DNA from: Treponemataceae bacterium
Lineage (GTDB): Bacteria > Spirochaetota > Spirochaetia > Treponematales > Rectinemataceae
Assembly (NCBI GenBank): GCA_963667725.2
Contig: CAXXHO010000003.1
Location: 512,001-576,000 of the forward strand
Direction of reading: 5' to 3'
Length of the DNA: 64,000 bases
Shown here: positions 3,931-22,275 of the stretch, in pieces
Position numbering within the stretch: the first letter of the stretch is position 1
How the letters are laid out: each line of letters begins with the position of its first letter
The notes under the pieces: generated by a model
Database searches by the model: none
What the model was told of the DNA's origin: nothing
Seen by the model: the letters and a program-made list of their open reading frames with translations, nothing else
Translations under genes and position numbers: made by a program

Positions 3931-4014
3931 TGGAAGCGGAGGGATTCGAACCCTCGTTGTTTTTCTCAATGCTGTTTTCGAGGCAACCGGTTCCTGCCTC
4001 TGACCTACGCTCCC
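3931..4014 (-). tRNA. Phage-borne tRNA-Ser(CGA)-like gene, possibly degenerate
   Basis: Minus strand: acceptor GGGAGCG/CGCTTCC, T arm GAGGG-TTCGAAT-CCCTC, loop CTCGAAA, long variable arm; imperfect anticodon stem and weak D arm. Confidence 0.6.
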
Positions 4015-4150: not shown

Positions 4151-4223
4151 AGGCAGGCGCGGGAGTCGAACCCGCTGTCTCCGGCTTATAGGGCCGGCGT
4201 GGAAGCCGTTTCACCTGTCTGCC
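4151..4223 (-). tRNA. Phage-borne tRNA-like gene with anticodon TAT (Ile), atypical
   Basis: Minus strand: acceptor GGCAGAC/GCCTGCC (1 mismatch), anticodon arm CCGGC-CCTATAA-GCCGG, T arm GCGGG-TTCGACT-CCCGC. Confidence 0.65.
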
Positions 4224-5733: not shown

Positions 5734-6417
5734 ATGGAATTTTATGAAAGAGTAAAGACTCTTGCAAAGCAAAATAGAATTACTATCGAAGGGGCTGCTG
5801 AGGCTGCCGGCATATCTAGAGCCCAGTACTACGGCTATAAGAAGCATGGGAATTTACCAAGAGCTGATGAAGCAGCGAACCTCGCAAAGGAATTAAATAC
5901 TTCAGTTGAGTATCTTGTTTTTGGAAAAGAAAGTACAAGAAAAGATATGCCTAGCGGTTTGGTCATAAGAGATGATAAAGGAAGAGAAATTGAAATCGAT
6001 AGTGAGCTATGTCTTCTGCCAATCCTTTCCCAGAAAGTAGCGGCTGGCATGGGCCAGGCCATGATCGACGATGTTGAGATCGTTGGTCAGCTTCCATTCC
6101 TAAACCGAATGCTTCGAGGCGAACAGCCGGCAGGCGCCAAGGCCCTCGAAGTCCGCGGAGACTCGATGACCGGCGTTAATATCTTCGATGGGGATATGGT
6201 TGTATTCATACCTGGAATAATTCGTGGCGATGGGATCTACGTGCTTGCCGTGGGCGATGAGCTGATTGTGAAACGTGTCGAGTTCGATGCAGTATCAAGG
6301 AAGATCCATATCATGTCCGAGAACCCTCGCTATAAAGATCGAGTAGAGTCCGCCGATGGCCAGACTCTCAGGGTTGTAGGGAAGGTGTTTGGTTGGGTAC
6401 ATGCGCATCCATATTGA
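5734..6417 (+). CDS. CI-like repressor: XRE HTH plus S24 peptidase
   Basis: N-terminal HTH; VAAG cleavage motif; VRGDSM catalytic Ser; VKRV catalytic Lys; SENPRY. Confidence 0.92.
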   Translation: MEFYERVKTLAKQNRITIEGAAEAAGISRAQYYGYKKHGNLPRADEAANLAKELNTSVEYLVFGKESTRKDMPSGLVIRDDKGREIEIDSELCLLPILSQKVAAGMGQAMIDDVEIVGQLPFLNRMLRGEQPAGAKALEVRGDSMTGVNIFDGDMVVFIPGIIRGDGIYVLAVGDELIVKRVEFDAVSRKIHIMSENPRYKDRVESADGQTLRVVGKVFGWVHAHPY

Positions 6418-6926
6418 TTACTTGGTTAGTCACTTATGTTACATTAAATGAAGATACCACTGCATTCTTTATATAAAGAAGTATCGTTTACCGGTTGACT
6501 TCTCCGAGAAGCCCTTTATCATAACAGACAGTAACACAACTGTTGAATTTCATAATTAGAAAACGATGCTCGGCGTACCCATTCTGTTTCGGCGAAGAGT
6601 TTGCCGAGTGTCCGTAATCTTCCTCTGAAGACTTTAGCCTTAAAAGGGCTATAATGCAGAGATATAATTGGTTGCCTTGAATCTCGTTCATCAACAATAA
6701 AAAAAGAGAGATGCCTATATTACTGTCGCTATTGAGATAAGGTATTGTTTGAGCTTAAAACATATGGTTTTATTCCCTTCCGCATAAAATACCATCTGTT
6801 AGTTTATACAGGTTAAGATCTTTTATGTAGAAAGAGAAGTAACCCATCCATAGAGAAGCAGTCAAAGATTTTATACTGGTAGATTTTTACTGATTTCACG
6901 TTTATTTATAGATCAACCCAATTATT

Positions 6927-6934
6927 GTTATATG
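6927..6934 (+). other. First crossover site GTTATATG (attI-like or remnant of a decayed attC)
   Basis: Exact reverse complement of CATATAAC (7670-7677) ending cassette 1; no attC palindrome recognised upstream. Confidence 0.6.
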
Positions 6935-6961
6935 GACCTCCGGGCAGTTAAAGGAGATTAT

Positions 6962-7696
6962 ATGGAATATCAAAAAAAATTAATTTTATTTCTAGACCTT
7001 CTTGGATTTAAGTCATTTATTAACGAAAAAACACAACTAGATGATAACTATGTAATGCATATACAAAGTATTATAAACCTAATCGAAACCATACGTGATG
7101 ATTTTTGTTTAGATGCAAGTATTAATCCTAATCAACGGCTTAGAAGTAATTTGTTCTCAAACTCTAGAATTACACAATTTTCTGATTCAATTATTATGAG
7201 TTCATTTTACCTAGTTGAAGATCATCTTAAAGAAACATTAGTTGATATAGTGGCAATGCAATGTAATGCTATTTATAGTGGTTTTCTTTTCCGAGGTGCA
7301 TTAACATATGGAGATATTTTACATACAGATAAATATTTGTTTGGTCCTGGATTTATTGATGCATATGAGATGGAGAGAGATAAAGCAGTATATCCTCGAA
7401 TTATTATTAGCGACTCGGTTATTAATAATGTCAACAGTACATGTAAGGCTTGTGATGATTTAATAGTCACCGATAAAGATGGAATAAAATACCTAGATAT
7501 TTTCAGTGGATTCAAATATAGATTTAACAGAGAATCATCAATAAGAGTAATGATTTCAGCATTGGAAAGAATAATACTAGAAGGTAAAAAAAATCAGAAT
7601 AAAAACATTCTAGAGAAATACTTGTGGCTAGAAGAAGAGTTGCTGAAATATAAAAAAAGAGAAAAAAGACATATAACAAATGCTTCAACCCTATAA
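6962..7696 (+). CDS. Cassette 1: class III nucleotidyl cyclase-like protein
   Basis: LFLDLLGFK, FSDSII, LFRGALTYG, LFGPGFIDAYEME, YPRIII motifs; SD AAGGAG before ATG 6962; stop lies inside attC. Confidence 0.65.
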   Translation: MEYQKKLILFLDLLGFKSFINEKTQLDDNYVMHIQSIINLIETIRDDFCLDASINPNQRLRSNLFSNSRITQFSDSIIMSSFYLVEDHLKETLVDIVAMQCNAIYSGFLFRGALTYGDILHTDKYLFGPGFIDAYEMERDKAVYPRIIISDSVINNVNSTCKACDDLIVTDKDGIKYLDIFSGFKYRFNRESSIRVMISALERIILEGKKNQNKNILEKYLWLEEELLKYKKREKRHITNASTL

Positions 7697-7795
7697 CGCC
7701 TTTTGTCATGGTTTTTGCTTGAAGATGACGCAAAAACCACGCCAATCTTTCGCTTCGCTCAGGAACAGGCGTTAAGGGTTAAGCCAATGCTAGAT
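7671..7795 (+). repeat. attC site 1 (R' mutated GTT to GCT)
   Basis: ATATAAC-AAATG-CTTCAACC...GGTTAAG-CCAAT-GCTAGAT, 125 bp. Confidence 0.85.
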
Positions 7796-7832
7796 GGATG
7801 CCTTCAGCGAATAAATTGGTAAAAGGGATTAT

Positions 7833-8687
7833 ATGACTAATGAACTTCTTGAATTACTTAGAATTGAAAGTAATGATCTAGATAAAGAATTTAGCAAAGC
7901 ATCAATAAAGGGTAAAGGAACACCACAAGAAATAGCCGACTTTAGAGAAGGTTACTTTAATAGCATTATAAGGAAGTACTTTCCATTTCCTTATAGAGTT
8001 ACTAAAGGCGGGATTATCGATACATTCGGAAATAAATCTGCATCAATTGATTGTGTTTTATGTAATCCTGCTCATCCATATACAATAGATAATTCAGGAA
8101 AATATTCTGTTTTACTTGCTGATGGTATTGATGCTGCTATAGAGATTAAGCCTGATATTAAGTCAAAGCACGAATTGATTAGAGGCTTAAGCCAAATAAA
8201 AAGTGTAAAAATATTACGTAGATCAAAATCACCAATTGTTGTTACAAGTAGGGTTACTGAAGAAATTATTGAGTACTCAAAGACTATCCCTTCATTTATT
8301 TATTCAATTGAAGCAAAGAAAAATATTGAAAATACATTAAATGAAGTTATTGAATATTATGTTCAAAATGATATTCCATTAGAAGAACAGGTTGACTATA
8401 TCGTAATTCATAATATTGGAATATTTGTTAATTATAAATATCAAGAGTTAAATAAAGGATACGTACCTGAAGGAATTCCAAGATATGGATACTTTTTTGA
8501 AACTTGGAACGAGCTTACTTTTGCTGCTTTCTTATTATATCTGAACCTTAGCTTTACAGCAGTTCCAGTTATAACGAGTAGTGTATTAGAACGTTATCTA
8601 TATTCTATCAAACCTATTAAAACTGGAAGGTTTAATTGTGAAGTATTTTGGGAAAAGGGGCATCTAACAAATGCTTCAACCCTATAA
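7833..8687 (+). CDS. Cassette 2: DUF6602-like PD-(D/E)XK nuclease-fold protein
   Basis: FRE...KYFPFPYRVTKGGIIDTFGNKSASIDCVL...AAIEIK; stop lies inside attC. Confidence 0.7.
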   Translation: MTNELLELLRIESNDLDKEFSKASIKGKGTPQEIADFREGYFNSIIRKYFPFPYRVTKGGIIDTFGNKSASIDCVLCNPAHPYTIDNSGKYSVLLADGIDAAIEIKPDIKSKHELIRGLSQIKSVKILRRSKSPIVVTSRVTEEIIEYSKTIPSFIYSIEAKKNIENTLNEVIEYYVQNDIPLEEQVDYIVIHNIGIFVNYKYQELNKGYVPEGIPRYGYFFETWNELTFAAFLLYLNLSFTAVPVITSSVLERYLYSIKPIKTGRFNCEVFWEKGHLTNASTL

Positions 8688-8786
8688 CGCCTTTTGTCAT
8701 GGTTTTTGCTAGAAGATGACACAAAAAACAAACCAATCCTTTGCTTCGCTCAGGAACAGGCGTTAAGGGTTAAGGCAATGTTATGC
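8662..8786 (+). repeat. attC site 2 (intact)
   Basis: ATCTAAC-AAATG-CTTCAACC...GGTTAAG-GCAAT-GTTATGC, 125 bp, near-identical to attC1. Confidence 0.9.
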
Positions 8787-8860
8787 GGATGCTTCGCGCA
8801 AGTAAATATTGTAGTATAGCAAATATTCTTAAAAACCTGTCTTAATAAAAGGCAAAAGAA

Positions 8861-10261
8861 ATGCCAAAACATCTATCATTAAAAATTTCAAATATGATAA
8901 TAAAGCTTTATCAAATATGGCCTTTTAATAGAGTTCCCGCAGCAAAAATTGTAAATAAATATTTGCATTCTGGAAGATTGTTAAATTTTAAATATAAAAC
9001 ATTAGATGAAATTCTAAATCTTGAGGCAATATGCCAATATTTTATTATTCCAATAGAAAAAAGGTTTAAGCTAATTAAGATTATTGATAAATTATATAAA
9101 AAATATGGAATAAAGCAGTTTGGAAATGATACAGATAGGTTGAAAGAGCAATTTGATAATTTATCATTGTCATCCGGTGGTTGGTCCAATTTATGTTATT
9201 TAAAGATAGATATTAATGGAAAAAATGGAGTTAATAGTGCTTTTATTAGCGTGGCACGGGTAGAAGAATCATTGCTTCTTGTAACAATTAAATCAATTCC
9301 CTCGGAAAAATTTAAATATAAGTATTATCAAGCAATAAAAATGCAAAACAAAGAATTTCCTATCCTTTATTATAGTTCGATAAAAGGCTATATAAAAAGC
9401 CCTGGATTTACAGATTATCTATATAATGTTCAGATATCATATGAATGCGATAAGCTAATTGATTGTTATAAAAAAATGTTAAATAAAGTATTCAAGATGT
9501 TAACAAAAGAATCATTAATTATTGCTCCGTTATCTATATTTATTTGTTATATAGATGGTCCACTTGCAGAAGACTATTATAAACGGGAACACCTTAAGTC
9601 ATGGAATAGGCTTGGGTTAATCGATGGAGAATCTTCAATAATTGGAGACGATGATAAAAAGTTTTATTTGATAAATAAGAAAAGTATTAAAAGTGACACT
9701 TTCTATTGCTTTGTTGATAAAACTAAAATGTTGTTAGAAGAGTTTTATTCTGAATACTGTGAAAAAATATTTTCATTACATGATGATATGCAAATTATTT
9801 TCGTATGGAATATTATAAAAGATAGTATTACTAATCGAATATATTCTCAACTTAACGATATCAGAGCAGATCTATATGAAAATGAGAATGGTTGGGAGAT
9901 ATTGAAGAATAAATACTTAAGTCCTTACGGAAATGTTATAAAAAATAAATATATTTTCGAAAGAATATTTGAAAATAATGGTAAAATCAGTGAAAGAGAA
10001 GCAAAATGGTTTGGAATAAGTACAATAAATATTGTTGATATATTTTCAAATAAAATTAAATTTACGGAATATATAAATAAGCAAATATCATATAAAACAA
10101 ATAGAATTAGTAAAATTATAAAAGATATTACTTTTGCGCTTGAAGGATATAAAAGCATAAGAAACGATCGTAGCAATTTAAAAATCCAAATTTGGTTATT
10201 TGCATTAACAATAATAACTGTATTAATTGGATTAATTCAAATAGTAATTGCGGTCGAATAA
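8861..10261 (+). CDS. Cassette 3: hypothetical protein with a single C-terminal TM helix
   Basis: 466 aa, very AT-rich; ends IQIWLFALTIITVLIGLIQIVIAVE; stop overlaps R''. Confidence 0.75.
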   Translation: MPKHLSLKISNMIIKLYQIWPFNRVPAAKIVNKYLHSGRLLNFKYKTLDEILNLEAICQYFIIPIEKRFKLIKIIDKLYKKYGIKQFGNDTDRLKEQFDNLSLSSGGWSNLCYLKIDINGKNGVNSAFISVARVEESLLLVTIKSIPSEKFKYKYYQAIKMQNKEFPILYYSSIKGYIKSPGFTDYLYNVQISYECDKLIDCYKKMLNKVFKMLTKESLIIAPLSIFICYIDGPLAEDYYKREHLKSWNRLGLIDGESSIIGDDDKKFYLINKKSIKSDTFYCFVDKTKMLLEEFYSEYCEKIFSLHDDMQIIFVWNIIKDSITNRIYSQLNDIRADLYENENGWEILKNKYLSPYGNVIKNKYIFERIFENNGKISEREAKWFGISTINIVDIFSNKIKFTEYINKQISYKTNRISKIIKDITFALEGYKSIRNDRSNLKIQIWLFALTIITVLIGLIQIVIAVE

Positions 10262-10341
10262 CAAATGCTTCAACCTTATAAATGCTTTGGCATGGCGTGT
10301 GTAAAACACCAATGCACAAACCACGCTAAGCCTTCGCTCAG

Positions 10342-12264
10342 CTGACGTTGTACAGCGTGTGGTATAATACAGTAAGCAATAAAGCAGCTTAATATATTAT
10401 ACTGACAACAAATAACTAAAAACGGACTGTACAAAAAGCATGATGCAAATGCGGTATAAGATATTTATAAATATTCGAAATAAAACTTTACAGATAAAAC
10501 ACTATGTTGTATAATTAGCGGTATAATGAACGTACGGAAATGTACCCTAAAGAATGCTCAAGGCGGTACCTATACGTACCTTCAACTTGTGCACAACTAC
10601 CGCGTCAAGGAAACAGGAAAGACCAAAACCAATGTCCTTATGAAGCTCGGACGGGAAGATCAGATCGAGCCTTCCTACATCCAGGCGATCATCAAGGCAC
10701 TGTCTGCGGTCTTAGGCGAATATCCTTCTGAAGTCCCCGCCGGATTTGACTTCCATTCAAGTCGGGAGCTTGGGGGCACCTGGCTTCTAGATGCCCTATG
10801 GAATCGTCTTGGCATGGCAAAGGCTATCAAAGGGCTTCTTAAGGAACGACAGTTCGCCACACCCGTCGAACGGCTCTGCTTTGCCATGGTTTCAGGAAGA
10901 ATACTCGCTCCGGGTTCGAAGCTTTCTCTTGAACACTGGGTTTCAAAGAAAGCATATATCAGGGATCTTGTGAACGTCGATGTTCACAATCTTTACCGGG
11001 CGATGGATCTTCTTGTGGAGTCGAGCGAAGAACTCCAGAAGCACATATTTACCGAAGTATCAAAGAATGCCCACCTTGATGTGGATCTTATCTTTCTTGA
11101 TACGACGAACACCTATTTCGAGACCGACGAAGATGCTTCCGGTTCAGGGCTTTTAAAACGTGGCCACAGTAAAGATGGACACCCCGAGCTACCGTTGGTT
11201 TCGATTGCCTTTGCGGTGACGCGTAGCGGCATTCCTATTCGCTGCTGGGTATTCCCGGGCAACACGAGCGACCAGACGATCGTCGAGCAGGTGAAAGGTG
11301 ATCTAGGACAGTGGAATCTTGGTCATGTCGTCATGGTCCAAGATGCAGGATTCAATAGTGCCGACAACAGAAGAATCCTTTTACGGGAATGCGGTGACTA
11401 TATCATCGGCGAAAAGCTCCGCGTTGGTACCGATGGCGCCGCGGTAGAAGCCCTACACCGGAAAGGGCGATTCAGGATCCTGGAAAGTGGCCTCGCGATT
11501 AAAGATGTCGTCCTCGATGCAGGGAAAGCCACGGAGCGCCGATTCATCATCGTCAAGAATCCGGAAGCCGAAACGCGCGACCATGTCATACGCGAACAAA
11601 TCGTCGATGCTACGAAGCGCAAGCTTGATGAACTGTCGCAGTATACGGGGAAAGCACACACGAAAGCGGCGTGTGCGCTACGCTCTCATTCCGCCTATGG
11701 CAGATACATTAGGCAGGATACGAAGGGTGTCTTGCACCTCGACACCGCCAAGATAGCCTCAGAGGAACTCCTTGATGGCAAGTTTCTAGTGTCGACGTCC
11801 AGCATGAAGCTGGATGCTGCCGATATTGTTGCCGGCTATAAGCAGCTCTGGGCCATAGAGCGGGTATTCAAGGATATGAAAAACACCTTGGATATTCGTC
11901 CCATATACCACCGACTTGATGATCGTATTCGAAGCCATATTCTTATTTGCTGGCTTGCCATGGTGCTGGTACGGTATGCAGAGAATATGGCGGACCGGTC
12001 GTGGTACCAGATTGAAAAAGTTCTGTCCGATGTTACTGCAGGGCTTATTGAGAGCGACAATGTAAGCCTCTGGTATTGCTCTGATATTTCCGACGAGGCG
12101 AAGGACATTTTCAAGCGCTTAACTATTGAATTACCAAAGAAAGTTCTTGCTACAGTAGCAAGAGATCCTGTTGCGGTATAAAAGATTTTCGACTGCAATC
12201 GTATAACTCTATTATTTATAGAGTATTAGCAAGATTTTCTATACCGCGCACTGTACAACGCCAG
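10342..12264 (+). mobile_element. IS1634-family insertion sequence
   Basis: TIRs CTGACGTTGTACAGCGTGTGGTAT / ATACCGCGCACTGTACAACGCCAG (20 of 24 match); flanks CTCAG / CTCAA resemble a target duplication. Confidence 0.88.
10526..12181 (+). CDS. IS1634-family DDE transposase
   Basis: YLQLVHNYR N-terminus, FLDTTNTYFE, RGHSKD, FPGNTSD, DAG, YKQLWAIERVFKDMK, RPIYHR. Confidence 0.92.
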   Translation: MNVRKCTLKNAQGGTYTYLQLVHNYRVKETGKTKTNVLMKLGREDQIEPSYIQAIIKALSAVLGEYPSEVPAGFDFHSSRELGGTWLLDALWNRLGMAKAIKGLLKERQFATPVERLCFAMVSGRILAPGSKLSLEHWVSKKAYIRDLVNVDVHNLYRAMDLLVESSEELQKHIFTEVSKNAHLDVDLIFLDTTNTYFETDEDASGSGLLKRGHSKDGHPELPLVSIAFAVTRSGIPIRCWVFPGNTSDQTIVEQVKGDLGQWNLGHVVMVQDAGFNSADNRRILLRECGDYIIGEKLRVGTDGAAVEALHRKGRFRILESGLAIKDVVLDAGKATERRFIIVKNPEAETRDHVIREQIVDATKRKLDELSQYTGKAHTKAACALRSHSAYGRYIRQDTKGVLHLDTAKIASEELLDGKFLVSTSSMKLDAADIVAGYKQLWAIERVFKDMKNTLDIRPIYHRLDDRIRSHILICWLAMVLVRYAENMADRSWYQIEKVLSDVTAGLIESDNVSLWYCSDISDEAKDIFKRLTIELPKKVLATVARDPVAV

Positions 12265-12355
12265 CTCAAGCCCGGATTTAAAAGCTAAACCAATGTTAGG
12301 TAGACCCTTCGAGTAGGACTATTAATTTAATTTTTTACACTAAAAGGATAGATTA

Positions 12356-13555
12356 ATGTCAGGACGATCAGCAACTGAAACAATTCGTGGTTTTTATTAC
12401 CAATTTGATTATTCAATTCTGAAAATACTCCGTTCTGACAATGATACAGTCAGCTTTGATATCGAAAAGATTGAAGACCTTGATATCAACACAGTTGATG
12501 AAACAACGGCGGTGCAATGCAAGTACTATTCTGGGACTGGATATAATCATTCAGTGATTGCTGAACCAATTCGAAAAATGATTAAGCATTATTCTCAGCA
12601 TCTAGACCAATCGATAAGATATAAACTTTATGGTCATTTTGCTTCAGGTCAGGATAAGCTCACATTGCCAATTGATATCAATTTTCTTAAAAGTTATTTT
12701 TTGACTTACAATCACAAAAATGTTAAGCATGAGTTTCAGATTGACGAATCTATCGATGATGAAATATTAGCAAGCTTTTTAGATGTATTGGATATTGATA
12801 TAAACGCTGCTACATATGAATCACAATTTTCAGAAATACAAAAGTTATTATGCAATTTGCTTTCTTGTACAGAATTTGAAGCCGATTCTTTATACTACAA
12901 TAGCGCGCTTCGTATAATTAAGGAATTATCTGTTCAAAGGGATGATTCAAAGAGAAGAATAACTAAAGCAAAAATGGTAGAGAGCATTTCCTGTAAGGAT
13001 ACCCTATTTGGGATCTGGTACATGAACTTGAAGGGGAATGAAAAATATTGTAGAATAATTAGGAAGAAATATTTTACTCAGCTTAATACATCTCCGTTTG
13101 AGAGATTTTTTATTATTGAAACTTCTCCGAGCACATCGATTCAGAATTTGAAAAGCATTACATATATGCTAGCTAATAAATGGTCAAAAATATCACGAAG
13201 AACAGTAGACACTTATTGCGCCTTTGTTTTATTTCCCCAATTAGGTGCATCAAATCTTAAGGAACTAAAAGTACAGCTCTATAAAGAAGGACTTCCAATC
13301 ATTGATGGATATCCTTTCCATGGATCTAATTTATGTACAGATTTTCTTTCGATCGAACCTAGATATGATAATAGAATTAAACTAAAATTCATAAATTCAT
13401 TAGGTGACTTTGCAGAATATCTTGATTATTCTACTCATCGTAAGGAAGTGTATCAATTTTTTACCTCGCAATCAGTTGATTTAGGTACGACAAACTTCGA
13501 TTTGCATATTTCAATTTGCTTGAAGAACGTCATGGACATATTGGAGGTATTATAA
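12356..13555 (+). CDS. Cassette 4a: DUF4297-family anti-phage nuclease-like protein
   Basis: RSATETIRGFYYQFDYSIL...IEDLDI...VQCKYY (Cap4-like PD-(D/E)XK with QxK); coupled to HerA. Confidence 0.8.
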   Translation: MSGRSATETIRGFYYQFDYSILKILRSDNDTVSFDIEKIEDLDINTVDETTAVQCKYYSGTGYNHSVIAEPIRKMIKHYSQHLDQSIRYKLYGHFASGQDKLTLPIDINFLKSYFLTYNHKNVKHEFQIDESIDDEILASFLDVLDIDINAATYESQFSEIQKLLCNLLSCTEFEADSLYYNSALRIIKELSVQRDDSKRRITKAKMVESISCKDTLFGIWYMNLKGNEKYCRIIRKKYFTQLNTSPFERFFIIETSPSTSIQNLKSITYMLANKWSKISRRTVDTYCAFVLFPQLGASNLKELKVQLYKEGLPIIDGYPFHGSNLCTDFLSIEPRYDNRIKLKFINSLGDFAEYLDYSTHRKEVYQFFTSQSVDLGTTNFDLHISICLKNVMDILEVL

Positions 13556-15330
13556 TGCCCGAAATAAATGCTGAAGTAGTTGGTGTTTTCCCAAGCAAAG
13601 TACGTATTTCTGTTGATAATATTAGTGATTTTAAGGTTGTTGAAGAAGAGCTTAAAATCGGATCGTACTTAAGGATCATTGGAGACAATGAAAATGTCAT
13701 TCTAATCGCAATGATCAATAGCTTCTCTATAGAGGCTACAATTGAAGGTGGCCGTAAGCATTTTATAGAAGCTTCTCCTTTAGGGATAATTACAGATGGC
13801 ATTTTTATTCGAGGAGGAGATTCTATCGCCATTCCTCCAAAGAAAGTTGAACCCGCAAAGAAAACAGAAATACAAGAGATATTTGGAAATTCCGTACCTG
13901 ACGCTAAAAAGTACATTTTTTCCACGCTAAATGCAAATCGATCAATTTCTGTTCCAGTTGATGGTGATAAATTCTTCAATAAACATATTGCCATCGTCGG
14001 ATCAACTGGTTCCGGGAAATCGCATACTGTAGCAAAACTCATTCAGAAAGCTCGCGATGCAAAAAATTCTGGATATTCTGGATTGAATAATTCTCATATT
14101 GTGATCTTTGATATTCATTCAGAATACAAATCAGCATTCCCTGAGGCTAATGTATTATCAATAGATAACTTGATTATTCCTTATTGGCTATTGAACAGTG
14201 ACGAGCTTGAGCAAATATTGCTTGATACTGGCGAGAGAGATAACTATAACCAAGCTTCAGTATTTCGAAGCTTGGTGACCGAAAATAAAAGACTAAAAAA
14301 TCCAACAGTAGATAAGGTTTTCTATGATAGTCCCCTTTTCTTCGATATTCAAGAAGTTCTCAATGCACTAACAAACATAAAAAATGAAACTGTAAATGCA
14401 AAAAATACAGACAGATATATGATTGTTGATCCTTCATATAAACTTGAAGCTGAAGGCAAAACAAATGTAGATTCAGGTATATTGTTAACTAACGATGAGA
14501 AAATGAGCAAATACTTTGAGAAGGTACTTTCATTCCACCCTAGAAAATCGCAGAGCATAACTTCAGGTGACTATTCTGATGGAACCTTGGATAAATTTGT
14601 TTCTAGGTTCCAAGCAAAAGTTTCCCAGGATAGACTCGAGTTTCTTTTTGGAGAGCATGCTAAATCAATATCCTTTTTAGATACTGTTAAGCAATTCATT
14701 GGATATGAAGAGAAAAAAGAAAAAAACGCTATAATTATAGACCTTAGTGGCGTGCCTTTTGAAGTCTTAAGTATTACCGTATCCTTAATTTCTCGTGTGA
14801 TATTTGAATATGGTTACCACTACAAGCGTTTTAGAACCAGAAAAGATCCATCTGAAAAAATCAATAATGACACACCAATTCTAGTAGTCTATGAGGAAGC
14901 TCATAAATATGCGCCAAGAAGTGATCTTGCGAAATACCGACCATCTTTGCTTGCTATTGAGCGGATAGCAAAAGAAGGTAGAAAATATGGCATTTCTCTA
15001 TTATTGGCTAGTCAACGGCCCTCAGAAATATCAGAAACAATCTTCTCGCAATGCAATAACTTTATAGCGATGCGTCTTACAAATCCTGATGACCAAAGTT
15101 TTGTAAAGAAACTCCTACCTGATACAATGGAAAGCCTGATTGATCAATTACCTGTATTAAGAGCTGGCGAGGCATTGCTAATAGGAGAAGCGGTTGTTAT
15201 ACCATCAATTGTAAAGATAGAAACATGTGATATCCCTCCTTCCTCAAATGACATCCCATATTGGCAATTATGGAAAGGTAGTTGGAAAGAATCTATACTC
15301 GAAACCATCGAGAAGGAATGGATGAAATAA
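13555..15330 (+). CDS. Cassette 4b: HerA/FtsK-like ATPase (DUF87)
   Basis: HIAIVGSTGSGKS Walker A, DIHSEY, EEAH Walker B, IAKEGRKYG, SQRPSE; TAATG overlap with the upstream stop. Confidence 0.92.
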   Translation: MPEINAEVVGVFPSKVRISVDNISDFKVVEEELKIGSYLRIIGDNENVILIAMINSFSIEATIEGGRKHFIEASPLGIITDGIFIRGGDSIAIPPKKVEPAKKTEIQEIFGNSVPDAKKYIFSTLNANRSISVPVDGDKFFNKHIAIVGSTGSGKSHTVAKLIQKARDAKNSGYSGLNNSHIVIFDIHSEYKSAFPEANVLSIDNLIIPYWLLNSDELEQILLDTGERDNYNQASVFRSLVTENKRLKNPTVDKVFYDSPLFFDIQEVLNALTNIKNETVNAKNTDRYMIVDPSYKLEAEGKTNVDSGILLTNDEKMSKYFEKVLSFHPRKSQSITSGDYSDGTLDKFVSRFQAKVSQDRLEFLFGEHAKSISFLDTVKQFIGYEEKKEKNAIIIDLSGVPFEVLSITVSLISRVIFEYGYHYKRFRTRKDPSEKINNDTPILVVYEEAHKYAPRSDLAKYRPSLLAIERIAKEGRKYGISLLLASQRPSEISETIFSQCNNFIAMRLTNPDDQSFVKKLLPDTMESLIDQLPVLRAGEALLIGEAVVIPSIVKIETCDIPPSSNDIPYWQLWKGSWKESILETIEKEWMK

Positions 15331-15335
15331 AAGAC

Positions 15336-15457
15336 GCCTAACAACTACTTCAACTGGATAATTCCTTTGGCACGGTTTGTGAAATCGCTTCGCTCTTTAT
15401 GCACAAACCGCGCCACGCCCTTCGAGCACGGACTTAAGGGTTAAGCGAATGTTGTGT
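15336..15457 (+). repeat. attC site 4 (apparently intact)
   Basis: GCCTAAC-AACTA-CTTCAACT...GGTTAAG-CGAAT-GTTGTGT; inner arm CGGTTTGTG/CACAAACCG. Confidence 0.85.
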
Positions 15458-15498
15458 AAACGCCTTCGGCGCTAAAGGAAATAAAAAAGGAGTAACGA

Positions 15499-15696
15499 AT
15501 GGATCAAATAATTAAATATTTTTCAGCAAATTATGAGTGGTTATTTTCCGGAATACTGTCAGGATTGATATTTTTTTTACTCGGTAACAAGCACGGATAT
15601 GATAAGGCAATAAAGCAGAAGCAAAAGGTTGGAAAAAACGGTAAAGGCATCCAGGTCAGTGGTAATTATACAGTAACAGGAAAAAGCAATGAATGA
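15499..15696 (+). CDS. Cassette 5a: 65 aa membrane peptide with C-terminal Q/N/G motif
   Basis: SD AAGGAG; hydrophobic WLFSGILSGLIFFLLG; tail QKQKVGKNGKGIQVSGNY. Confidence 0.75.
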   Translation: MDQIIKYFSANYEWLFSGILSGLIFFLLGNKHGYDKAIKQKQKVGKNGKGIQVSGNYTVTGKSNE

Positions 15697-16528
15697 AAAA
15701 CAAAATCAAAAAGTAGGTGATAATTCAACTGCCATTCAAGTTAATGGCGATTACCATGCTGGACTTCCTTATGATCAAGTAAAATCAATTTTTATGGATT
15801 TATTTGAGCTAAACTTCCCAAGAATACAGACATTGGCAAAAGCAGAAGCCGATAAACGAGTTCAAGAATTACTTAATAATTTAAGACAGTCAATGGAAGC
15901 TAAACAAAGCAACATTGATGTATTAAAATTTACTGATCCAGGAATTCAAATTGAGATGCAGCAAATGATTACAAGTGTTGCCTGCAGAGGAAACAAAAGT
16001 AATATTGATTTGCTTTCAGAATTATTTACAACTATAATCGAAAAAGATTGCCCAGAAATAATTGAGCAAATCGCTGGTGAAACTCTTAAAATAATACCAT
16101 TATTAGGGAAAAAGCAACTTGATGCTTTATCCGTTATGATTTTAACATTTGAAGCAAGTGTGGAAATTATAACAATCGAACAAGCAGAAAATGTTTTCAG
16201 AGATACTATGCCATTTATACGTCATGCAGAATATATAACATCCGGTGACCTTTCCTATTTGGTGTGTGTTAATTGTATATCTCGAAAGTCAATTACTCAT
16301 GTTAATGTTGTGCCAAATATCATTAGATGTATTCCAGGAATGGACAAAACTGGCATTGAAGAAGTAATTAATCAATCGAAACAAAAGCGGTTGTTAAATA
16401 TTCTATCATTCACAGAGTACATGGGAAAATGTCAAATAGGGCGATTTGATTTATCTCCAGTTGGAAAACTGATTGGATGGCTTAATATACAAAGCATTTC
16501 TAAAATCGATATTAAAACGTTATTTTGA
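15689..16528 (+). CDS. Cassette 5b: LPO_1073/Vpar_1526-like protein
   Basis: N-terminal QNQKVGDNSTAIQ...GLPYDQVKSIFMDLFELNFPRI...FTDPGIQ recalls this family. Confidence 0.7.
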   Translation: MNEKQNQKVGDNSTAIQVNGDYHAGLPYDQVKSIFMDLFELNFPRIQTLAKAEADKRVQELLNNLRQSMEAKQSNIDVLKFTDPGIQIEMQQMITSVACRGNKSNIDLLSELFTTIIEKDCPEIIEQIAGETLKIIPLLGKKQLDALSVMILTFEASVEIITIEQAENVFRDTMPFIRHAEYITSGDLSYLVCVNCISRKSITHVNVVPNIIRCIPGMDKTGIEEVINQSKQKRLLNILSFTEYMGKCQIGRFDLSPVGKLIGWLNIQSISKIDIKTLF

Positions 16529-16531
16529 ATC

Positions 16532-16636
16532 GCACAACAACTGTTTTAAGCTGAAAATTCCTATTGGCATGGTTTGTGCTGTCGCTTTGTTCGGAACAAA
16601 CCACGCCAAGCCCTTCGGGCCGGAATTGAAGGTTAA
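16532..16636 (+). repeat. attC site 5, truncated (R' missing)
   Basis: GCACAAC...GGCATGGTTTG/CAAACCACGCC...GGTTAA, then unrelated palindrome in place of R'. Confidence 0.75.
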
Positions 16637-16693
16637 TCTTGGGATGGTACCTCCCAAGAAAAAATTCGATTGTTTATGCAATGAGAGTTACTG

Positions 16694-17323
16694 ATGAACT
16701 GCTTAAAGGAAAAAATGCTGAATAGAACTAACTCGAAAATTGAGATTGGATTCGTGAATGAACACACTGTAGAGTATGTTCTTGTTCAAAAACTTGTAGA
16801 AATTATAGGGAATATACCTCATGCTTTTCTTTTTCCTTACCAAACAAGAGAGGGAAACACAGTTTCCAGAGAAATACATAGAAATGATAATTTTAGTATG
16901 ATTGGAATATTTTCTAGAAGACCGAAAATTAGACTTGACCATAAAGAAGATATATATATAAAAATCAACCAAGAAATTATCGATTATTCAAATAAAGCAT
17001 ATACCTTTGGTATCCCTTTTATTGCAGGATGCCCAATAGCATCAAATTTTTGGGATCTTGGTAATAACATCGCCTGGTTTGATTTACAAAAAATGAAAAG
17101 AGAGTGCCTTATAAAAGTAAGCAGTCAAAGCTTAAGAAGTAATTCAAGTGAAGAATTGCTTACAACAAACAAATTACGAGATGTATTATTAAATAATAAG
17201 ACCATATTTAATATTACAAATGCAATGGATGCAATTAAATATTCTGTCAGCAAAATGAATCAGTATCGGTATTCACTATTCGGTCCGATTTATAAACCTT
17301 TTTATCTATTAATAAGAAAATAG
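16694..17323 (+). CDS. Cassette 6: hypothetical protein
   Basis: 209 aa AT-rich ORF between attC5 and attC6; no family recognised. Confidence 0.7.
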   Translation: MNCLKEKMLNRTNSKIEIGFVNEHTVEYVLVQKLVEIIGNIPHAFLFPYQTREGNTVSREIHRNDNFSMIGIFSRRPKIRLDHKEDIYIKINQEIIDYSNKAYTFGIPFIAGCPIASNFWDLGNNIAWFDLQKMKRECLIKVSSQSLRSNSSEELLTTNKLRDVLLNNKTIFNITNAMDAIKYSVSKMNQYRYSLFGPIYKPFYLLIRK

Positions 17324-17353
17324 TGACTATCATAATTTTATGGTAAACTCGTT

Positions 17354-17473
17354 GCCTAGCAACCGCTTTATCCTAATTCGCAATGAAAAGGTTTTCGTAG
17401 GTTTTGATAAACTATAAGTTTTCCGTATGCGTAACAAAGCGTGACGGCTTAAAAGTCAAGCTAATTATCATGA
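17354..17473 (+). repeat. attC site 6, strongly degenerate
   Basis: GCCTAGC-AACCGCTTTATCCT...GTGACGG...GTCAAGC; colinear homology with attC7. Confidence 0.55.
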
Positions 17474-17574
17474 TATAATAAATAAGAAATTAAGACATAT
17501 GGTCTAGATAATAGAATATAATAACTCTGCATTATTTGTTTTTACAGTATTATCGTTGTGCTTACGGGGAAAAA

Positions 17575-18387
17575 ATGTATTACAATAAATTGACTATTAT
17601 TCGAAAAATATTTGATGGTGGACAAAAAAATGTTTTTCTTGCGAATGATTCTAGTGACACAACTATAGTATATAAGCTTTGTAAACCGAAAAATGATTAT
17701 CAACTTGAGCGATTTAAAAGGGAGCTGATGTTTTTACACTCCCAACATAAATCTTGTTTTCCGTTTGTTATTGATTATCATATTGATGAAAGAACAAAAG
17801 AAATCGAAATAATTGAAGAGTTTATTGATGATGGATCATTAACCGATCGCTTGAATAATATCTGGACAGAGAATGATTGTGTTATTTTCCTTAAGAAAAT
17901 ACTAGAGCCCTGTATTGAATTATGGAGCAAGAATATAGTACATCGAGATATAAAACCTGATAATATAATGTTTAGAAAGAATGGCGAACTTGTGCTTATC
18001 GATTTAGGAATAGCTCGTTTCATTGACTACTCTTCAATAACTAATACCTTAAATATTATGGGTCCTTGTACTCCAATTTATGCAGCACCTGAGCAAATTA
18101 TTAATCAAAAAAGGTTTATCGATTTTCGCACAGATTTGTTTTCTATAGGCATAGTAGTTCTTCAGCTGTTTTTAGGTTTTCATCCATTTGATCCATGCAA
18201 AATAACTAACAGCAAAGCTGATATTATTCAAAACATTTTAGCGGGGGTTTATGCATCAGCGAAAAGCAAAAATTCTTGTAGCGAATACTTTAGTATTTTA
18301 ACTAATAAGCTGCTGAAAACAAGGCAATACCAAAGATTCAGTTCTGTCGATGAATTAAATAAGTTCATTTCTACAAACTGGGGGTAA
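17575..18387 (+). CDS. Cassette 7a: Hanks-type Ser/Thr protein kinase
   Basis: GGQKNVF, VYK, RE, HRDIKPDN, DLG, YAAPEQ, DLFSIG. Confidence 0.92.
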   Translation: MYYNKLTIIRKIFDGGQKNVFLANDSSDTTIVYKLCKPKNDYQLERFKRELMFLHSQHKSCFPFVIDYHIDERTKEIEIIEEFIDDGSLTDRLNNIWTENDCVIFLKKILEPCIELWSKNIVHRDIKPDNIMFRKNGELVLIDLGIARFIDYSSITNTLNIMGPCTPIYAAPEQIINQKRFIDFRTDLFSIGIVVLQLFLGFHPFDPCKITNSKADIIQNILAGVYASAKSKNSCSEYFSILTNKLLKTRQYQRFSSVDELNKFISTNWG

Positions 18388-18391
18388 GAAC

Positions 18392-19582
18392 ATGCTTTTA
18401 TTACATCAAACTGGTAATAATTACAAATGGAACATTCAAAGCTTTACTGAAGATCATATTGGTGACGGATTAATTCTGTCGCCAATAAATACTAGTTATA
18501 AAAATCTTGAAGCGTTACCAAAAGCAATTATAGAAAAATCTGTTTTTGACCCTCAATTATTAATGCCATCTAATGGGAATGGAAAACTTACAACATACCC
18601 ATATTTTCCTACTTCAATATTGCCTTCGTATAGATCTACTGATTATGAATCAATAAAAAAAGAAATTGCACGACAATATACTCAGATGATTATTAAGCTT
18701 GGATTTAAAAAAATTATTATACCAAATAGATACAGTGATATTGAATCCTCGACATATCTTGAAAACATACAAAGCAATTTTATAGAACCATATTGCAATG
18801 AAATTCCTTCATCTCTGAAGATAGCAAAATATTTAACTATATTCGTCAACAAAACAAGGCTTATTGATGATGAAGCAAGAGATACAATGCTTGACTGGAT
18901 AACAGGTCTTTCAGAAATAGATGGTATATATCTTATATTTGATATTAAACGAACAACAAAGCAGATAAAGGACGTAGATATTTTAGCCGAAGCACTGTTT
19001 TTTGTAAAATCAGTTGAATCATCTGGTAAAAGAGTTATAATCGGCTTCACGAATACAGAAGGAATTTTATTTTCTATTGCTGGGCCTGAAGCTATAACAT
19101 GTGGCAGTTATGAAAACTTACGTAACTTTAGTATGTCAATAAGTCGATTTGCTAAAAAGGAAAAGGAAAAAAAAGGTAGACGGGGACCAAACGCACGATT
19201 GTATAGTGCCGTACTAATACAATGGATTGAATATAACTATGTTAAGGCTTTAGTAAAGAATCGTTATAGCCGATTATATGAAATATTCGCTGATTCAAAG
19301 TATCGGCCCTTATTCTTTGAGCCAACTTATAACTGGCATTTTGGAAGATCGGAACTATATAAACATTTTTTCATAGAGATTGATCGACAAGTAAAAGACC
19401 TCCCAGATGATCTTGATGAAAGAAAAAATTATTTGCTTTCAGCTATAAAGAATGCAATTACTATTTATGAAGATATTGCTCAGAGTGGTATATTACTTGA
19501 TTCTGATAGTAATGGAACGCATCTCAATGGATGGTTCAATGCAATCACTATATATGATAGATTAGTTAGGGAGCGGTTATAA
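18392..19582 (+). CDS. Cassette 7b: hypothetical protein, possibly TIM-barrel/beta-protein-like
   Basis: HQTG, ILSP, FDPQ motifs; alternating beta/alpha pattern; 4 nt after kinase stop. Confidence 0.6.
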   Translation: MLLLHQTGNNYKWNIQSFTEDHIGDGLILSPINTSYKNLEALPKAIIEKSVFDPQLLMPSNGNGKLTTYPYFPTSILPSYRSTDYESIKKEIARQYTQMIIKLGFKKIIIPNRYSDIESSTYLENIQSNFIEPYCNEIPSSLKIAKYLTIFVNKTRLIDDEARDTMLDWITGLSEIDGIYLIFDIKRTTKQIKDVDILAEALFFVKSVESSGKRVIIGFTNTEGILFSIAGPEAITCGSYENLRNFSMSISRFAKKEKEKKGRRGPNARLYSAVLIQWIEYNYVKALVKNRYSRLYEIFADSKYRPLFFEPTYNWHFGRSELYKHFFIEIDRQVKDLPDDLDERKNYLLSAIKNAITIYEDIAQSGILLDSDSNGTHLNGWFNAITIYDRLVRERL

Positions 19583-20013
19583 TGTTTCAATCAGAGAGTG
19601 ATTTATCTTTTGCATTTAAAAAAATTTTACCGACTACACATTGGGCAAATACTGAAGTGTTCGAAGAGGTTGAAGGACTATTAGGCATTCCTGATTTTAT
19701 TCTAATTAAAAAAAACAGAAAAACAAATGTTGCAATTGGTGTTGAACTCAAGTTATCTAACTGGCAAAGAGCAATGAATCAGGCGTTTAAGTATAAAACA
19801 TTCTGTAATATGAGTTATGTTATAATGGATGATGCACATATTGAACCGGCAAAGAAAAAACTTCCTGATTTCATCCGTTATAATATTGGTTTGGCTAGTA
19901 TTGATGATAATAAACATGAAATAAAATATTTTTATAAGCCTATAATGCAAGAACCATATTCTGAAGAGCTAAACACGAAACTATATCAGAAGTTATTCGC
20001 AAGTATATATTAA
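19582..20013 (+). CDS. Cassette 7c: small PD-(D/E)XK nuclease-fold protein (MmcB/sce7726-like)
   Basis: EEV...GIPDF...GVELKLSNWQRAMNQAFKY; TAATG coupling. Confidence 0.7.
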   Translation: MFQSESDLSFAFKKILPTTHWANTEVFEEVEGLLGIPDFILIKKNRKTNVAIGVELKLSNWQRAMNQAFKYKTFCNMSYVIMDDAHIEPAKKKLPDFIRYNIGLASIDDNKHEIKYFYKPIMQEPYSEELNTKLYQKLFASIY

Positions 20014-20018
20014 CAGCG

Positions 20019-20140
20019 GCATAATAACCGCTTTTACCTTATTCGAATTGACTAGAATATTCATAGGTCTTGAAAAACCATTGGTTCTCTGTATGCACAG
20101 TATCGAGTGACGGAATAAAGATTAAGCGAAAATGTTAGGT
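20019..20140 (+). repeat. attC site 7 (R'' AAC to AAT)
   Basis: GCATAAT-AACCG-CTTTTACC...GATTAAGCGAAAAT-GTTAGGT. Confidence 0.65.
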
Positions 20141-20258
20141 GGACGCTATACGCGGGAAAAAACAATCAAACTTGTGAAATATGAGGGAGAAACTGATGGA
20201 ATAACAGCCGCCTTGATTGTTTGTTTTGTCTTGTGGACAGCCTGGCGGCGTTAGTATT

Positions 20259-20905: not shown

Positions 20906-22087
20906 TCAGCCTTTTGTAGCTTTGTTGGCTCGTTTGTCGCCGCGGTCTTTGTCGAGTATGTCTTTCACCGAAAGTCCCTCTTTGTAGACTGTTTCGTCAT
21001 CCGGATGCTGGTACCCCTTCGAAGTGACCGAACTCGCGTGGCCCATAAGAAGCATAAGGGAAGCTTCGTCCAGAATTTCTAGCTTGTATGTTCCAAAACT
21101 GTGACGGAGGTAGTATGGCGTCCAGGTGGAATCCATGTATCCCAAACGCTTCATTGCACGTTCGAAGCAATTTCCTATTGAAGCTTCCGACACCGGGTTT
21201 GATCGGCCGGGAGCCGTAAACACGAAGTCCATATCGTCGGCAGTCATTGTCTGCTCTTTCCATATAAGCAATTCCTGAACCGTTCGCTCCGAAAGATATC
21301 CAGGTCGAACAATCCCCGTCTTTGTGGTCTTTACCTTGCTGTTTGTCCCTGATTCAATCGCTGTCCGGATAGGAACGAAACGCTTCTCAAGGTCTATCTG
21401 CCCCCACCTAATCGCCCGGAGTTCTCCAGGGCGTGCCCCCGTATCATTCATGGCGAAGAAGAATGCAACATACATTGGCGAACCATAGAGCTTGATGGCT
21501 TCGCCATGGGTAGCCGGATAAAGTATGACGATGACCTCACGGGGGAGGGCAGACCGGGGCTTTTCTGGGGCTTTATTGTATTTGACCACTCCTTCAAGAG
21601 GGTTTTCCTTGACGAGCCCTTGCTGGCGCCAATAGGTGAACATTAGAGAAAGCGCATAGAGCATCTTGTTCCGCGTGCCGCGGGCGTATGGGGAGCCATT
21701 GATCCTGTTGAGGCTTTTTATTGTGATATTGATCTCTGACGGCTCAAGCTCCTGGATGTTACAGGCACCGAAGACCTTCAGAAAATGGTTCTCGAGGAAG
21801 CCTTGATAGATGGCGAGGGTGGCATCGGTTCGCTTCCAGCCATGTTCTACCTGGTCGCGATCCCACGCCCCATCCTTGTTGAAGAATCCAACAGCGAGTT
21901 CGGAGAAGAGGTAGTCTTTCGCTCTGCCTAGAAGAACAAGGTGATTTCTCGACGCCCATTTCACGGCAGCTTCCCGGGTGCTCTCGGGAGACATGAACCA
22001 TTTTCCGGGGGCATCGTCGTATTCTACGCGAAAGCGTTTCTTCCCTGGTATCCACTGCGTCTTGATAGCTTTTTTCGGTCTGGGCAT
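20906..22087 (-). CDS. Phage-type tyrosine recombinase/integrase
   Basis: TGARPGEL (R), KT, YYLRHSF (HxxR variant), LMGH, YQH; N-terminal arm-binding-like and SAM-like domains; adjacent to tRNA. Confidence 0.92.
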   Translation of the reverse strand: MPRPKKAIKTQWIPGKKRFRVEYDDAPGKWFMSPESTREAAVKWASRNHLVLLGRAKDYLFSELAVGFFNKDGAWDRDQVEHGWKRTDATLAIYQGFLENHFLKVFGACNIQELEPSEINITIKSLNRINGSPYARGTRNKMLYALSLMFTYWRQQGLVKENPLEGVVKYNKAPEKPRSALPREVIVILYPATHGEAIKLYGSPMYVAFFFAMNDTGARPGELRAIRWGQIDLEKRFVPIRTAIESGTNSKVKTTKTGIVRPGYLSERTVQELLIWKEQTMTADDMDFVFTAPGRSNPVSEASIGNCFERAMKRLGYMDSTWTPYYLRHSFGTYKLEILDEASLMLLMGHASSVTSKGYQHPDDETVYKEGLSVKDILDKDRGDKRANKATKG

Positions 22088-22203: not shown

Positions 22204-22275
22204 TAGCCCCTAGGGGAGTCGAACCCCTCTTTAAAGATTGAGAATCTTTTGTCCTAACCGATAGACGAAGGGGCC
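22204..22275 (-). tRNA. tRNA-Glu(CTC)
   Basis: GGCCCCTTCGTCTATCGGTTAGGAC-AAAGA-TTCTCAA-TCTTT...GGTTCGACTCCCCTAGGGGCTA. Confidence 0.95.

Follow-up and report, generated by a model that had tools for sequence, protein, structure and literature searches.

Introduction

In integrons, circular gene cassettes are inserted at G^TT, which gives rise to chimeric attC sites (PMC4889954; here and below, each publication is cited for the excerpts consulted). According to the accepted model, cassettes near the promoter are expressed and the rest are stored silent (PMC8876359, bioRxiv 2024.07.02.601686). Current tools are mostly unable to predict attI sites or heads that lack an integrase gene (PMC4889954). 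In LoaP systems, a hairpin is required for antitermination, and LoaP is present in Spirochaetota (PMC12691694). Here, we analyze a stretch from a Treponemataceae bacterium that is virtually certain to be an integron cassette array and that begins with a very probable attI site and no integron integrase gene (intI). It lies in a window of 64,000 nucleotides (positions 512,001 to 576,000 of the forward strand of contig CAXXHO010000003.1, assembly GCA_963667725.2), to which all coordinates given without a contig refer.

On balance, we favor a prophage-borne array at whose head stand a promoter-like site, a LoaP-type hairpin, and an attI that lacks an integrase gene; the array would be filled in trans and read with the help of LoaP-type antitermination. 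The ends of each cassette pair in the sequence as circle insertion at G^TT demands, and positions 6770 to 6933 carry, by homology, the attI layout of the host, with the stretch that would hold intI absent. An IntI encoded elsewhere would insert circles at attI, newest first, and older cassettes would be pushed out, decay, and become fixed. Comparison places a bulged UUCG hairpin at all seven integron heads of the genome and before intI across the order. A LoaP-like NusG paralog may bind this hairpin in the nascent RNA, and RNA polymerase would then travel deeper into the AT-rich array. Expression would thus not be confined to the first cassettes and would include a DUF4297-HerA pair.

A cassette array without its own integrase gene

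The repeats of the array have the composition of attC sites, with R'' (..AAC) and R' (GTT..) cores around an inverted repeat; attC1 has GCT, and attC5 has no R'. The cassette genes all share one orientation, and each ends at an attC (Table 1). With seven attC sites, two of them weak, and no intI nearby, the array belongs to the attC clusters that have no integron integrase (CALIN); it is not a complete integron, since no intI stands beside attI. Neither an intI nor an intI remnant was found in the window, and three intI scoring above the TIGR02249 cut-off are located elsewhere in the genome (contigs C5, C1, and C7). In the three complete integrons, intI points towards the cassettes. The repeat family comprises 274 non-overlapping profile matches in the genome, most of them within the three arrays located behind an integron integrase. 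The same head is found four times in this genome without intI and three times before an intI.

Table 1. Features of the array and its surroundings, in window coordinates (aa, amino acids; ORF, open reading frame; IS, insertion sequence)
Feature	Position	Strand	Details
Phage-type repressor, helix-turn-helix and S24 peptidase	5734..6417	+	Left neighbor of the head; Pfam, PHROG 4
Sigma-70-type promoter-like site	6495..6522	+	TTGACT-16-TATCAT; candidate array promoter
Conserved stem-loop	6555..6623	+	Bulged UUCG hairpin; core CTGTTTCGGC at 6584-6593
Probable attI region without intI	6770..6933	+	Core 6911-6926; crossover after G6927
Cassette 1	6928..7789	+	244-aa protein of no known family (6962-7696), attC1 (7670-7796); start/end 8/8
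Cassette 2	7790..8780	+	DUF6602 / NucC-like nuclease gene (7833-8687), attC2 (8661-8787)
Cassette 3	8781..12295	+	466-aa protein of no known family (8861-10261), attC3, split by IS
IS1634-family element	10342..12264	+	31 bases before attC3 crossover; NF033559 above cut-off; ends and 5-base target repeats
Cassette 4	12296..15451	+	DUF4297-HerA anti-phage pair (12356-13555, 13555-15330), attC4
Cassette 5	15452..16636	+	65-aa ORF, LPO_1073/Vpar_1526-family gene (15689-16528), attC5 truncated before crossover
IS30 3'-end remnant	16637..16700	+	End approximate; matches ends of two IS30 copies on contig C5
209-aa ORF and attC6	16694..17464	+	attC6 strongly decayed (about 17354-17464; weak, E 0.29)
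Old three-gene cassette	17465..20141	+	Ser/Thr kinase (17536-18387), 396-aa and 143-aa proteins, decayed attC7 (crossover G 20134)
Phage tyrosine integrase	20906..22087	-	Not an integron integrase; beside tRNA-Glu (22204-22275)

A conserved leader hairpin and a LoaP-like protein

At all seven heads, a TTGACT-16-TAnnAT layout precedes a hairpin located 46 to 57 bases past the -10 box, and an alignment of the heads shows an invariant 19-base motif after the promoter-like site. A 15-base hairpin core occurs in seven copies in 4.2 Mb, every one at an integron head. Its distance to attI is 1.5 to 1.6 kb at the three heads with intI and 300 to 347 bases at the four intI-less heads, which we read as a putative promoter, a hairpin, and attI with the integrase gene absent. 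The predicted fold consists of a stem, a one-base bulge, two pairs, a small internal loop, two more pairs, and a UUCG loop. In 16 aligned copies, whose rows are related and motif-selected, 93% of the cells are paired and 17 changed on both sides, a value that none of 500 shuffles reached. The U-G pairs of the hairpin fit the transcribed (sense) strand, the window leader folds with a z of -2.39, and a second hairpin follows the first in the intI-less heads. No Rfam family was detected at the hairpin or the attC sites at E values up to 1.

The hairpin extends to related genomes. In 26 of 48 relatives, spread over four families, its 8-base loop core, GTTTCGGC, stands upstream of intI at a distance of at most 700 bases, with no antisense occurrence and a mean of 0.6 in two-base block shuffles; one of these 26 matches is probably due to chance. 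The 48 relatives, taken from 101 genomes with intI, comprise the 28 top intI matches with enough flanking sequence and 20 picked by hand. A strict hairpin model matched 23 of 68 family genomes (7 of the 23 belong to its training set); judged by coordinates, 14 of the matches precede an intI, a gene present in 37 family genomes, and three precede cas-type genes. Outside the family, this model gave a single weak match in 131 genomes, the 8-base core alone reaching further. An 18-base scan of species genomes returned 82 stretches against about 69 expected by chance, of which only stem-bearing, spirochaete-like matches were counted, and the named records with the leader motif carry spirochaete labels. 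In viral scans, one of nine motif loci looks real, and a query with the excisionase gave none. On a viral contig, the hairpin follows a repressor and precedes ordinary cargo genes, with no attI or attC. Its presence at cas operons and at a phage accessory locus without integron parts is as expected of a general expression signal.

Two observations from single genera belong here. At loci L086, L087, and L208, all in one genus of the family, the hairpin stands before cas10/cas6-like and cas1-cas2 operons; at L193, L195, L199, and L202, likewise of one genus, an extra gene or spacer of about 700 to 900 bases separates the hairpin from intI.

The genome encodes a LoaP-like NusG paralog (C3:1093681-1094256), whose best solved relative is 8F5G, a LoaP. 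The ten core bases of the window hairpin, CTGTTTCGGC, and its layout are those of the Bacillus velezensis dfn hairpin (supplement of PMC12691694). The locus has a UNCG leader hairpin like that of the dfn and mln systems, with the ten core bases and a covarying outer stem; a loaP gene beside its target is missing, the LoaP-like gene being about 575 kb away. From these comparisons, we think it rather likely that the LoaP-like protein binds the head hairpin; that array expression is extended by antitermination is plausible, and we advance it with more reserve. Our literature search, with subscription journals outside it, found no papers linking LoaP with integrons, or integron cassettes with a NusG paralog or antitermination.

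Several observations weigh against this interpretation. The hairpin forms part of the lowest-energy fold in only four of the seven leaders; 22 of the 48 relatives lack the 8-base core, and kin are not independent. The LoaP-like gene is present in 65 of 68 family genomes, a commonness that makes its co-occurrence with the hairpin uninformative. The protein differs from 8F5G at one putative contact residue, with S in place of the E that opens an ER pair there, a pair that we infer to be E40/R41 of PMC12691694. Other points would suit a hairpin that is real and works without LoaP, whether in RNA stability, in the control of intI translation, or as a binding site for IntI or for the second, UpxY-type NusG paralog that this genome also encodes. 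With NF033641, the family that fits it best, the LoaP-like protein reaches 118.7 bits where the cut-off is 125, and its gene heads a xanthine-dehydrogenase-like operon without a clear hairpin. Sense-strand terminators are few: in a simple scan, terminator-like sites on that strand came to 4/11 in the window array and 1/14 over the initial 12.5 kb of the large integron, and a review concluded that attC sites are not terminators (PMC8876359). The middle stem also differs from that of dfn (UU/AA against CG/CG). UUCG loops are common as stable folds. Yet we regard a function apart from LoaP as rather unlikely, given that the ten identical core bases come with the same succession of stem, bulge, two pairs, and internal loop as in dfn, that the hairpin is kept at heads without intI and before cas operons without an integron, and that its wobble pairs fit the transcribed strand, unlike those of attC.

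A probable attI site and how it may have been filled

The first junction of the array is very probably an attI site, as judged by its likeness to those of relatives. We scored 89517 GTT sites with an attI matrix built from 19 distinct sites of relatives, leaving out the genome itself. The three true attI sites took ranks 1 to 3, and the intI-less heads took ranks 4, 5, 7 (the window), and 38. Palindromic boxes lie 157, 56, and 23 bases before the crossover, at offsets equal to those in the complete integrons of the host. They are the three best matches in the window to a palindrome whose training set was the 45 bases that directly follow intI in 16 relatives, and they represent candidate accessory IntI sites. 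With core and accessory boxes combined, the window attI ranks sixth; its score is 26.1, and the site that comes next reaches 12.5. In relatives, the sequence that lies downstream of intI and leads up to the first GTT is conserved. The palindrome is degenerate, TTATACTG-NN-CAGTATAA, occupies positions 6770-6787, 6871-6888, and 6904-6921, and stands at fixed offsets before attI in the lineage.

This head has probably been filled in trans by the integron integrases of the host. In this regard, the start and end of the first cassette agree at eight of eight bases at all four intI-less heads, compared with 4 of 20 later cassettes (P about 0.007), and attC1 shares 96% identity with one of the sites in the host's large integron. 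The interior of the head, on the other hand, is no more like other heads than shuffles are (z 0.1-1.6) and is unlike the leaders and trailers of the complete integrons (of 36 comparisons, a single one gave a z of 3.3). This combination points to continued insertion in trans. Two findings count against it. The first-position test is biased, two of the four first junctions having been located by requiring a 7-of-8 match. The far end of the array resembles a cassette start and not half of an attI, so part of the array may have been captured as a block. A DNA search with the window head found it in none of the 68 family genomes.

Block capture could also explain the entire array, if it had come out of a complete integron and intI had been deleted afterwards, with nothing added since and the head a decaying relic. 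The head does keep the order of leader, post-intI palindrome, and attI, the far end of the array is truncated, and intI loss and rearrangement are among the described origins of such arrays (PMC4889954). However, the window has no remnant of intI, and promoter, hairpin, and attI boxes have been kept while the DNA between them has not. The interior of the head is at background, yet attC1 is still close to a host site and the first cassette is perfect at every intI-less head. We therefore consider a block relic unlikely and retain filling in trans.

Further heads and cassettes were seen beyond the window. Two more tRNA-anchored integrase islands on contig C3 carry arrays without intI. L008 (C3:1635000-1654400; tRNA-Pro) is a related prophage remnant with two tandem intI-less heads and 10 + 5 cassettes, with genes for Abi-alpha, TIR, methyltransferases, NUDIX, and GNAT. 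In L010 (C3:346500-364300; tRNA-Ala), an integrase island, type I restriction-modification genes accompany an intI-less head whose cassettes include HamA with a helicase and an Sll1717-family ATPase. The attC at C3:603936-605892 stands alone; the start that matches it lies 1843 bases upstream, and its attI score is poor, which we read as a single cassette at a secondary site. A metagenome scan, in which 79 of at least 119 stretches were analyzed and 13 were strong, revealed at least two further distinct intI-less heads (L228, identical to L257, and L259).

A prophage setting

Judged by its gene content, the array is within a tRNA-anchored prophage remnant. It sits between the repressor and the phage integrase, and early phage genes go on to the left. 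The repressor is 61% identical to that of a viral contig that also carries a terminase small subunit. Among 20 element proteins scanned, phage-type matches cover the integrase, the repressor, an excisionase-like protein, RusA, and replication, and none corresponds to head, tail, or packaging genes. We regard the element as a remnant because it has no head or tail match, whereas on the viral contig that shares its early genes, HNH and terminase follow. Repressor homologs occur in 7 of 60 relatives, and no attC was found near them in 13 stretches.

The phage could also have contributed the leader. If a phage accessory promoter and hairpin came first, the cassettes would have landed beside them at a secondary, attG-type site. 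The related phage has a repressor, a promoter, a hairpin, and cargo in the same slot, with neither attI nor attC, and short GWT sites serve as insertion targets of IntI throughout genomes (bioRxiv 2022.09.11.507474). The attI core and the accessory boxes at host offsets go far beyond a three-base motif, and we hold this order of events to be very unlikely. A phage leader may also have been joined to a captured attI, as a mixed origin.

Other parts of the phage region deserve mention. A tRNA-Ser and a second tRNA-like gene lie within the early region (3931-4014 and 4151-4223). To the left of the window, L006 holds a Fic-domain cassette (L006 9926-11290; C3:501926-503290) with matching GTC/GAC cores instead of GTT/AAC. 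Next come a gene with a beta-lactamase fold (serine hydrolase) and an attC that has decayed, all of it lying amid three repeated pieces of the phage replication region.

Pairing of cassette ends

A sequence-only reading of this DNA had proposed that the start of each cassette matches its own end, as the footprint of circular intermediates. The ten R' and R'' motifs on which it relied are all exact at their coordinates. Over core positions 4 to 8, comparing each start with the reverse complement of its own end, 20 of 25 bases pair, and the mismatch that it had described between R'' and R' inside linear sites was confirmed (8 of 20 bases agree). Shuffled pairings, which that reading had named as a way to refute it, gave a mean of 13.2 over all 120 permutations, and the true pairing alone reached 20. 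Its suggestion to circularize the cassettes in silico and fold the junctions led to the same result: on the bottom strand, the circular junction beats the linear site in 4 of 4 cases (-32.6 against -27.7, -24.7 against -22.8, -18.2 against -16.8, and -23.4 against -21.7 kcal/mol).

Agreement between start and end stops after position 8, positions 9 to 12 being near background. From cassette 1 to cassette 5, mismatches over the eight bases number 0, 1, 1, 2, and 2, and cassette 2 starts with GCT instead of GTT. In the three intI arrays of the host, own-end pairing at positions 4 to 8 is perfect in 152/162 (the large integron), 35/37, and 23/27, and none of 5000 shuffles of any of these arrays matched the observed mean. 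The bottom strand is the more stable one in 244 of 256 attC sites genome-wide. Overall, the pairing supports the view that circular integron cassettes inserted at G^TT, which would have given the chimeric attC sites. The opposing idea that the repeats are terminators or simple duplications paired by chance, which the 86% identity of attC1 and attC2 over 156 bases might suggest, is refuted, as the sequence-only reading had argued, by the permutations, the array shuffles, the bottom-strand bias, and the presence of integron integrases.

The pairing is an already known integron footprint and not new; it is nonetheless a useful means of dating cassettes. Contig runs covering the stretch, two of them from one sample, showed only short-sided joints, which arise from repeats, and no circle junction was among the joints listed. 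No second copy of any of the seven cassettes was found in the genome, and no DUF4297 homologs were found in 300 relatives at 1e-30.

Cassette content and insertion sequences

The array extends beyond the span first described, to position 20141, and this extension includes two decayed attC sites. It has aged along its length: mismatches rise, attC3 is split by an IS, attC5 is cut (at about 16636, where it joins the 3' end of IS30), and the last two sites are decayed. The DUF4297-HerA pair is a PADLOC match, and both genes score above the cut-offs of NCBIfam NF042945 and NF042944. For the 244-aa protein of cassette 1, we obtained only a weak nucleotide-cyclase-fold lead (0.85). A possible nucleotide-cyclase-fold gene directly precedes the NucC-like nuclease gene (6962-8687), in a separate cassette. 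At 17536-20013, the kinase, the 396-aa protein (86 homologs, none named), and an sce7726-like gene form a possible undescribed defense unit.

The target repeats of the IS1634-family element (10337-10341 and 12265-12269) differ by one base, unlike those of most copies, through a point change or as a hybrid site. Besides the window copy, copies are located at C5:418362-420284, 432330-434252, 458066-459988, 399953-401875, and 406028-407950. Four of 10 copies lie 31 to 32 bases before an attC crossover (one inverted), and 2 more have attC flanks with rearranged sides, although attC makes up 0.85% of the genome. There are IS1111 elements that target attC. We considered IS1634 as a general attC-targeting element, which the relatives did not support, 0 of 9 loci being inside an attC.

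Comparison with known systems

The array resembles CALIN as described (PMC4889954) in having at least two attC sites, no intI nearby, chimeric attC sites, and an integrase elsewhere in the genome. It differs from that description in its full attI layout, its promoter-like site, and its conserved hairpin, and in a head that recurs four times in the genome and at two metagenome loci. The hairpin may serve as a sequence signature by which to locate attI sites and heads without an integrase gene. There is precedent for an attI-bearing prophage array: the cryptic prophage M16-3 of Shewanella (Qi 2023, PMC9892861) is defective and carries an attI-bearing array without an adjacent intI. That prophage also has a complete integron, and no leader hairpin is described in the text consulted. 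The complete integrons of the present genome, all three of them, have in common with Treponema-type integrons (Wu 2013, PMC3607928) that intI is read towards attI and the cassettes; in the excerpts of that account, neither a promoter nor a leader element is named upstream of intI. Cassette insertion away from the intI locus recalls attG sites (Loot, bioRxiv 2022.09.11.507474), whose consensus is a short GWT, in contrast to the host attI architecture of the window site.

The dfn and mln systems of B. velezensis (PMC12691694) are similar in their UNCG-type hairpin soon after the promoter, in the ten core bases, and in a LoaP-like paralog. Their targets are antibiotic clusters, whereas the candidates in the present case comprise integron heads, cas operons, and one accessory locus of a phage. 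In our locus, moreover, the gene is far off, the middle stem is different, and no strong leader terminator was found, the comparison being one of sequences. If the interpretation is correct, the widespread LoaP of spirochaetes gains a defense-related regulon, LoaP being so far known only from Bacillus antibiotic clusters. More tentatively, spirochaete integrons in general could form a LoaP regulon, in which a single promoter and a single leader hairpin would drive processive antitermination across intI and the array, leaving distal cassettes not silent by default. Miniature, non-autonomous integrase-less heads would then move with prophages and, loaded in trans with defense cassettes, would share a switch with cas operons.

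Finally, the array shares with chromosomal integrons that carry anti-phage cassettes (Darracq, bioRxiv 2024.07.02.601686) the presence of defense genes as cassettes, namely DUF4297-HerA and, in the sister island, HamA with a helicase. In Vibrio, distal cassettes are reportedly expressed poorly until they are moved to attI, whereas here a read-through signal may extend expression. If so, an antiterminator-loading hairpin at integron heads would alter the silent-storage model for a whole order. The integrase-less head with a LoaP-type hairpin is probably a new regulatory variant.

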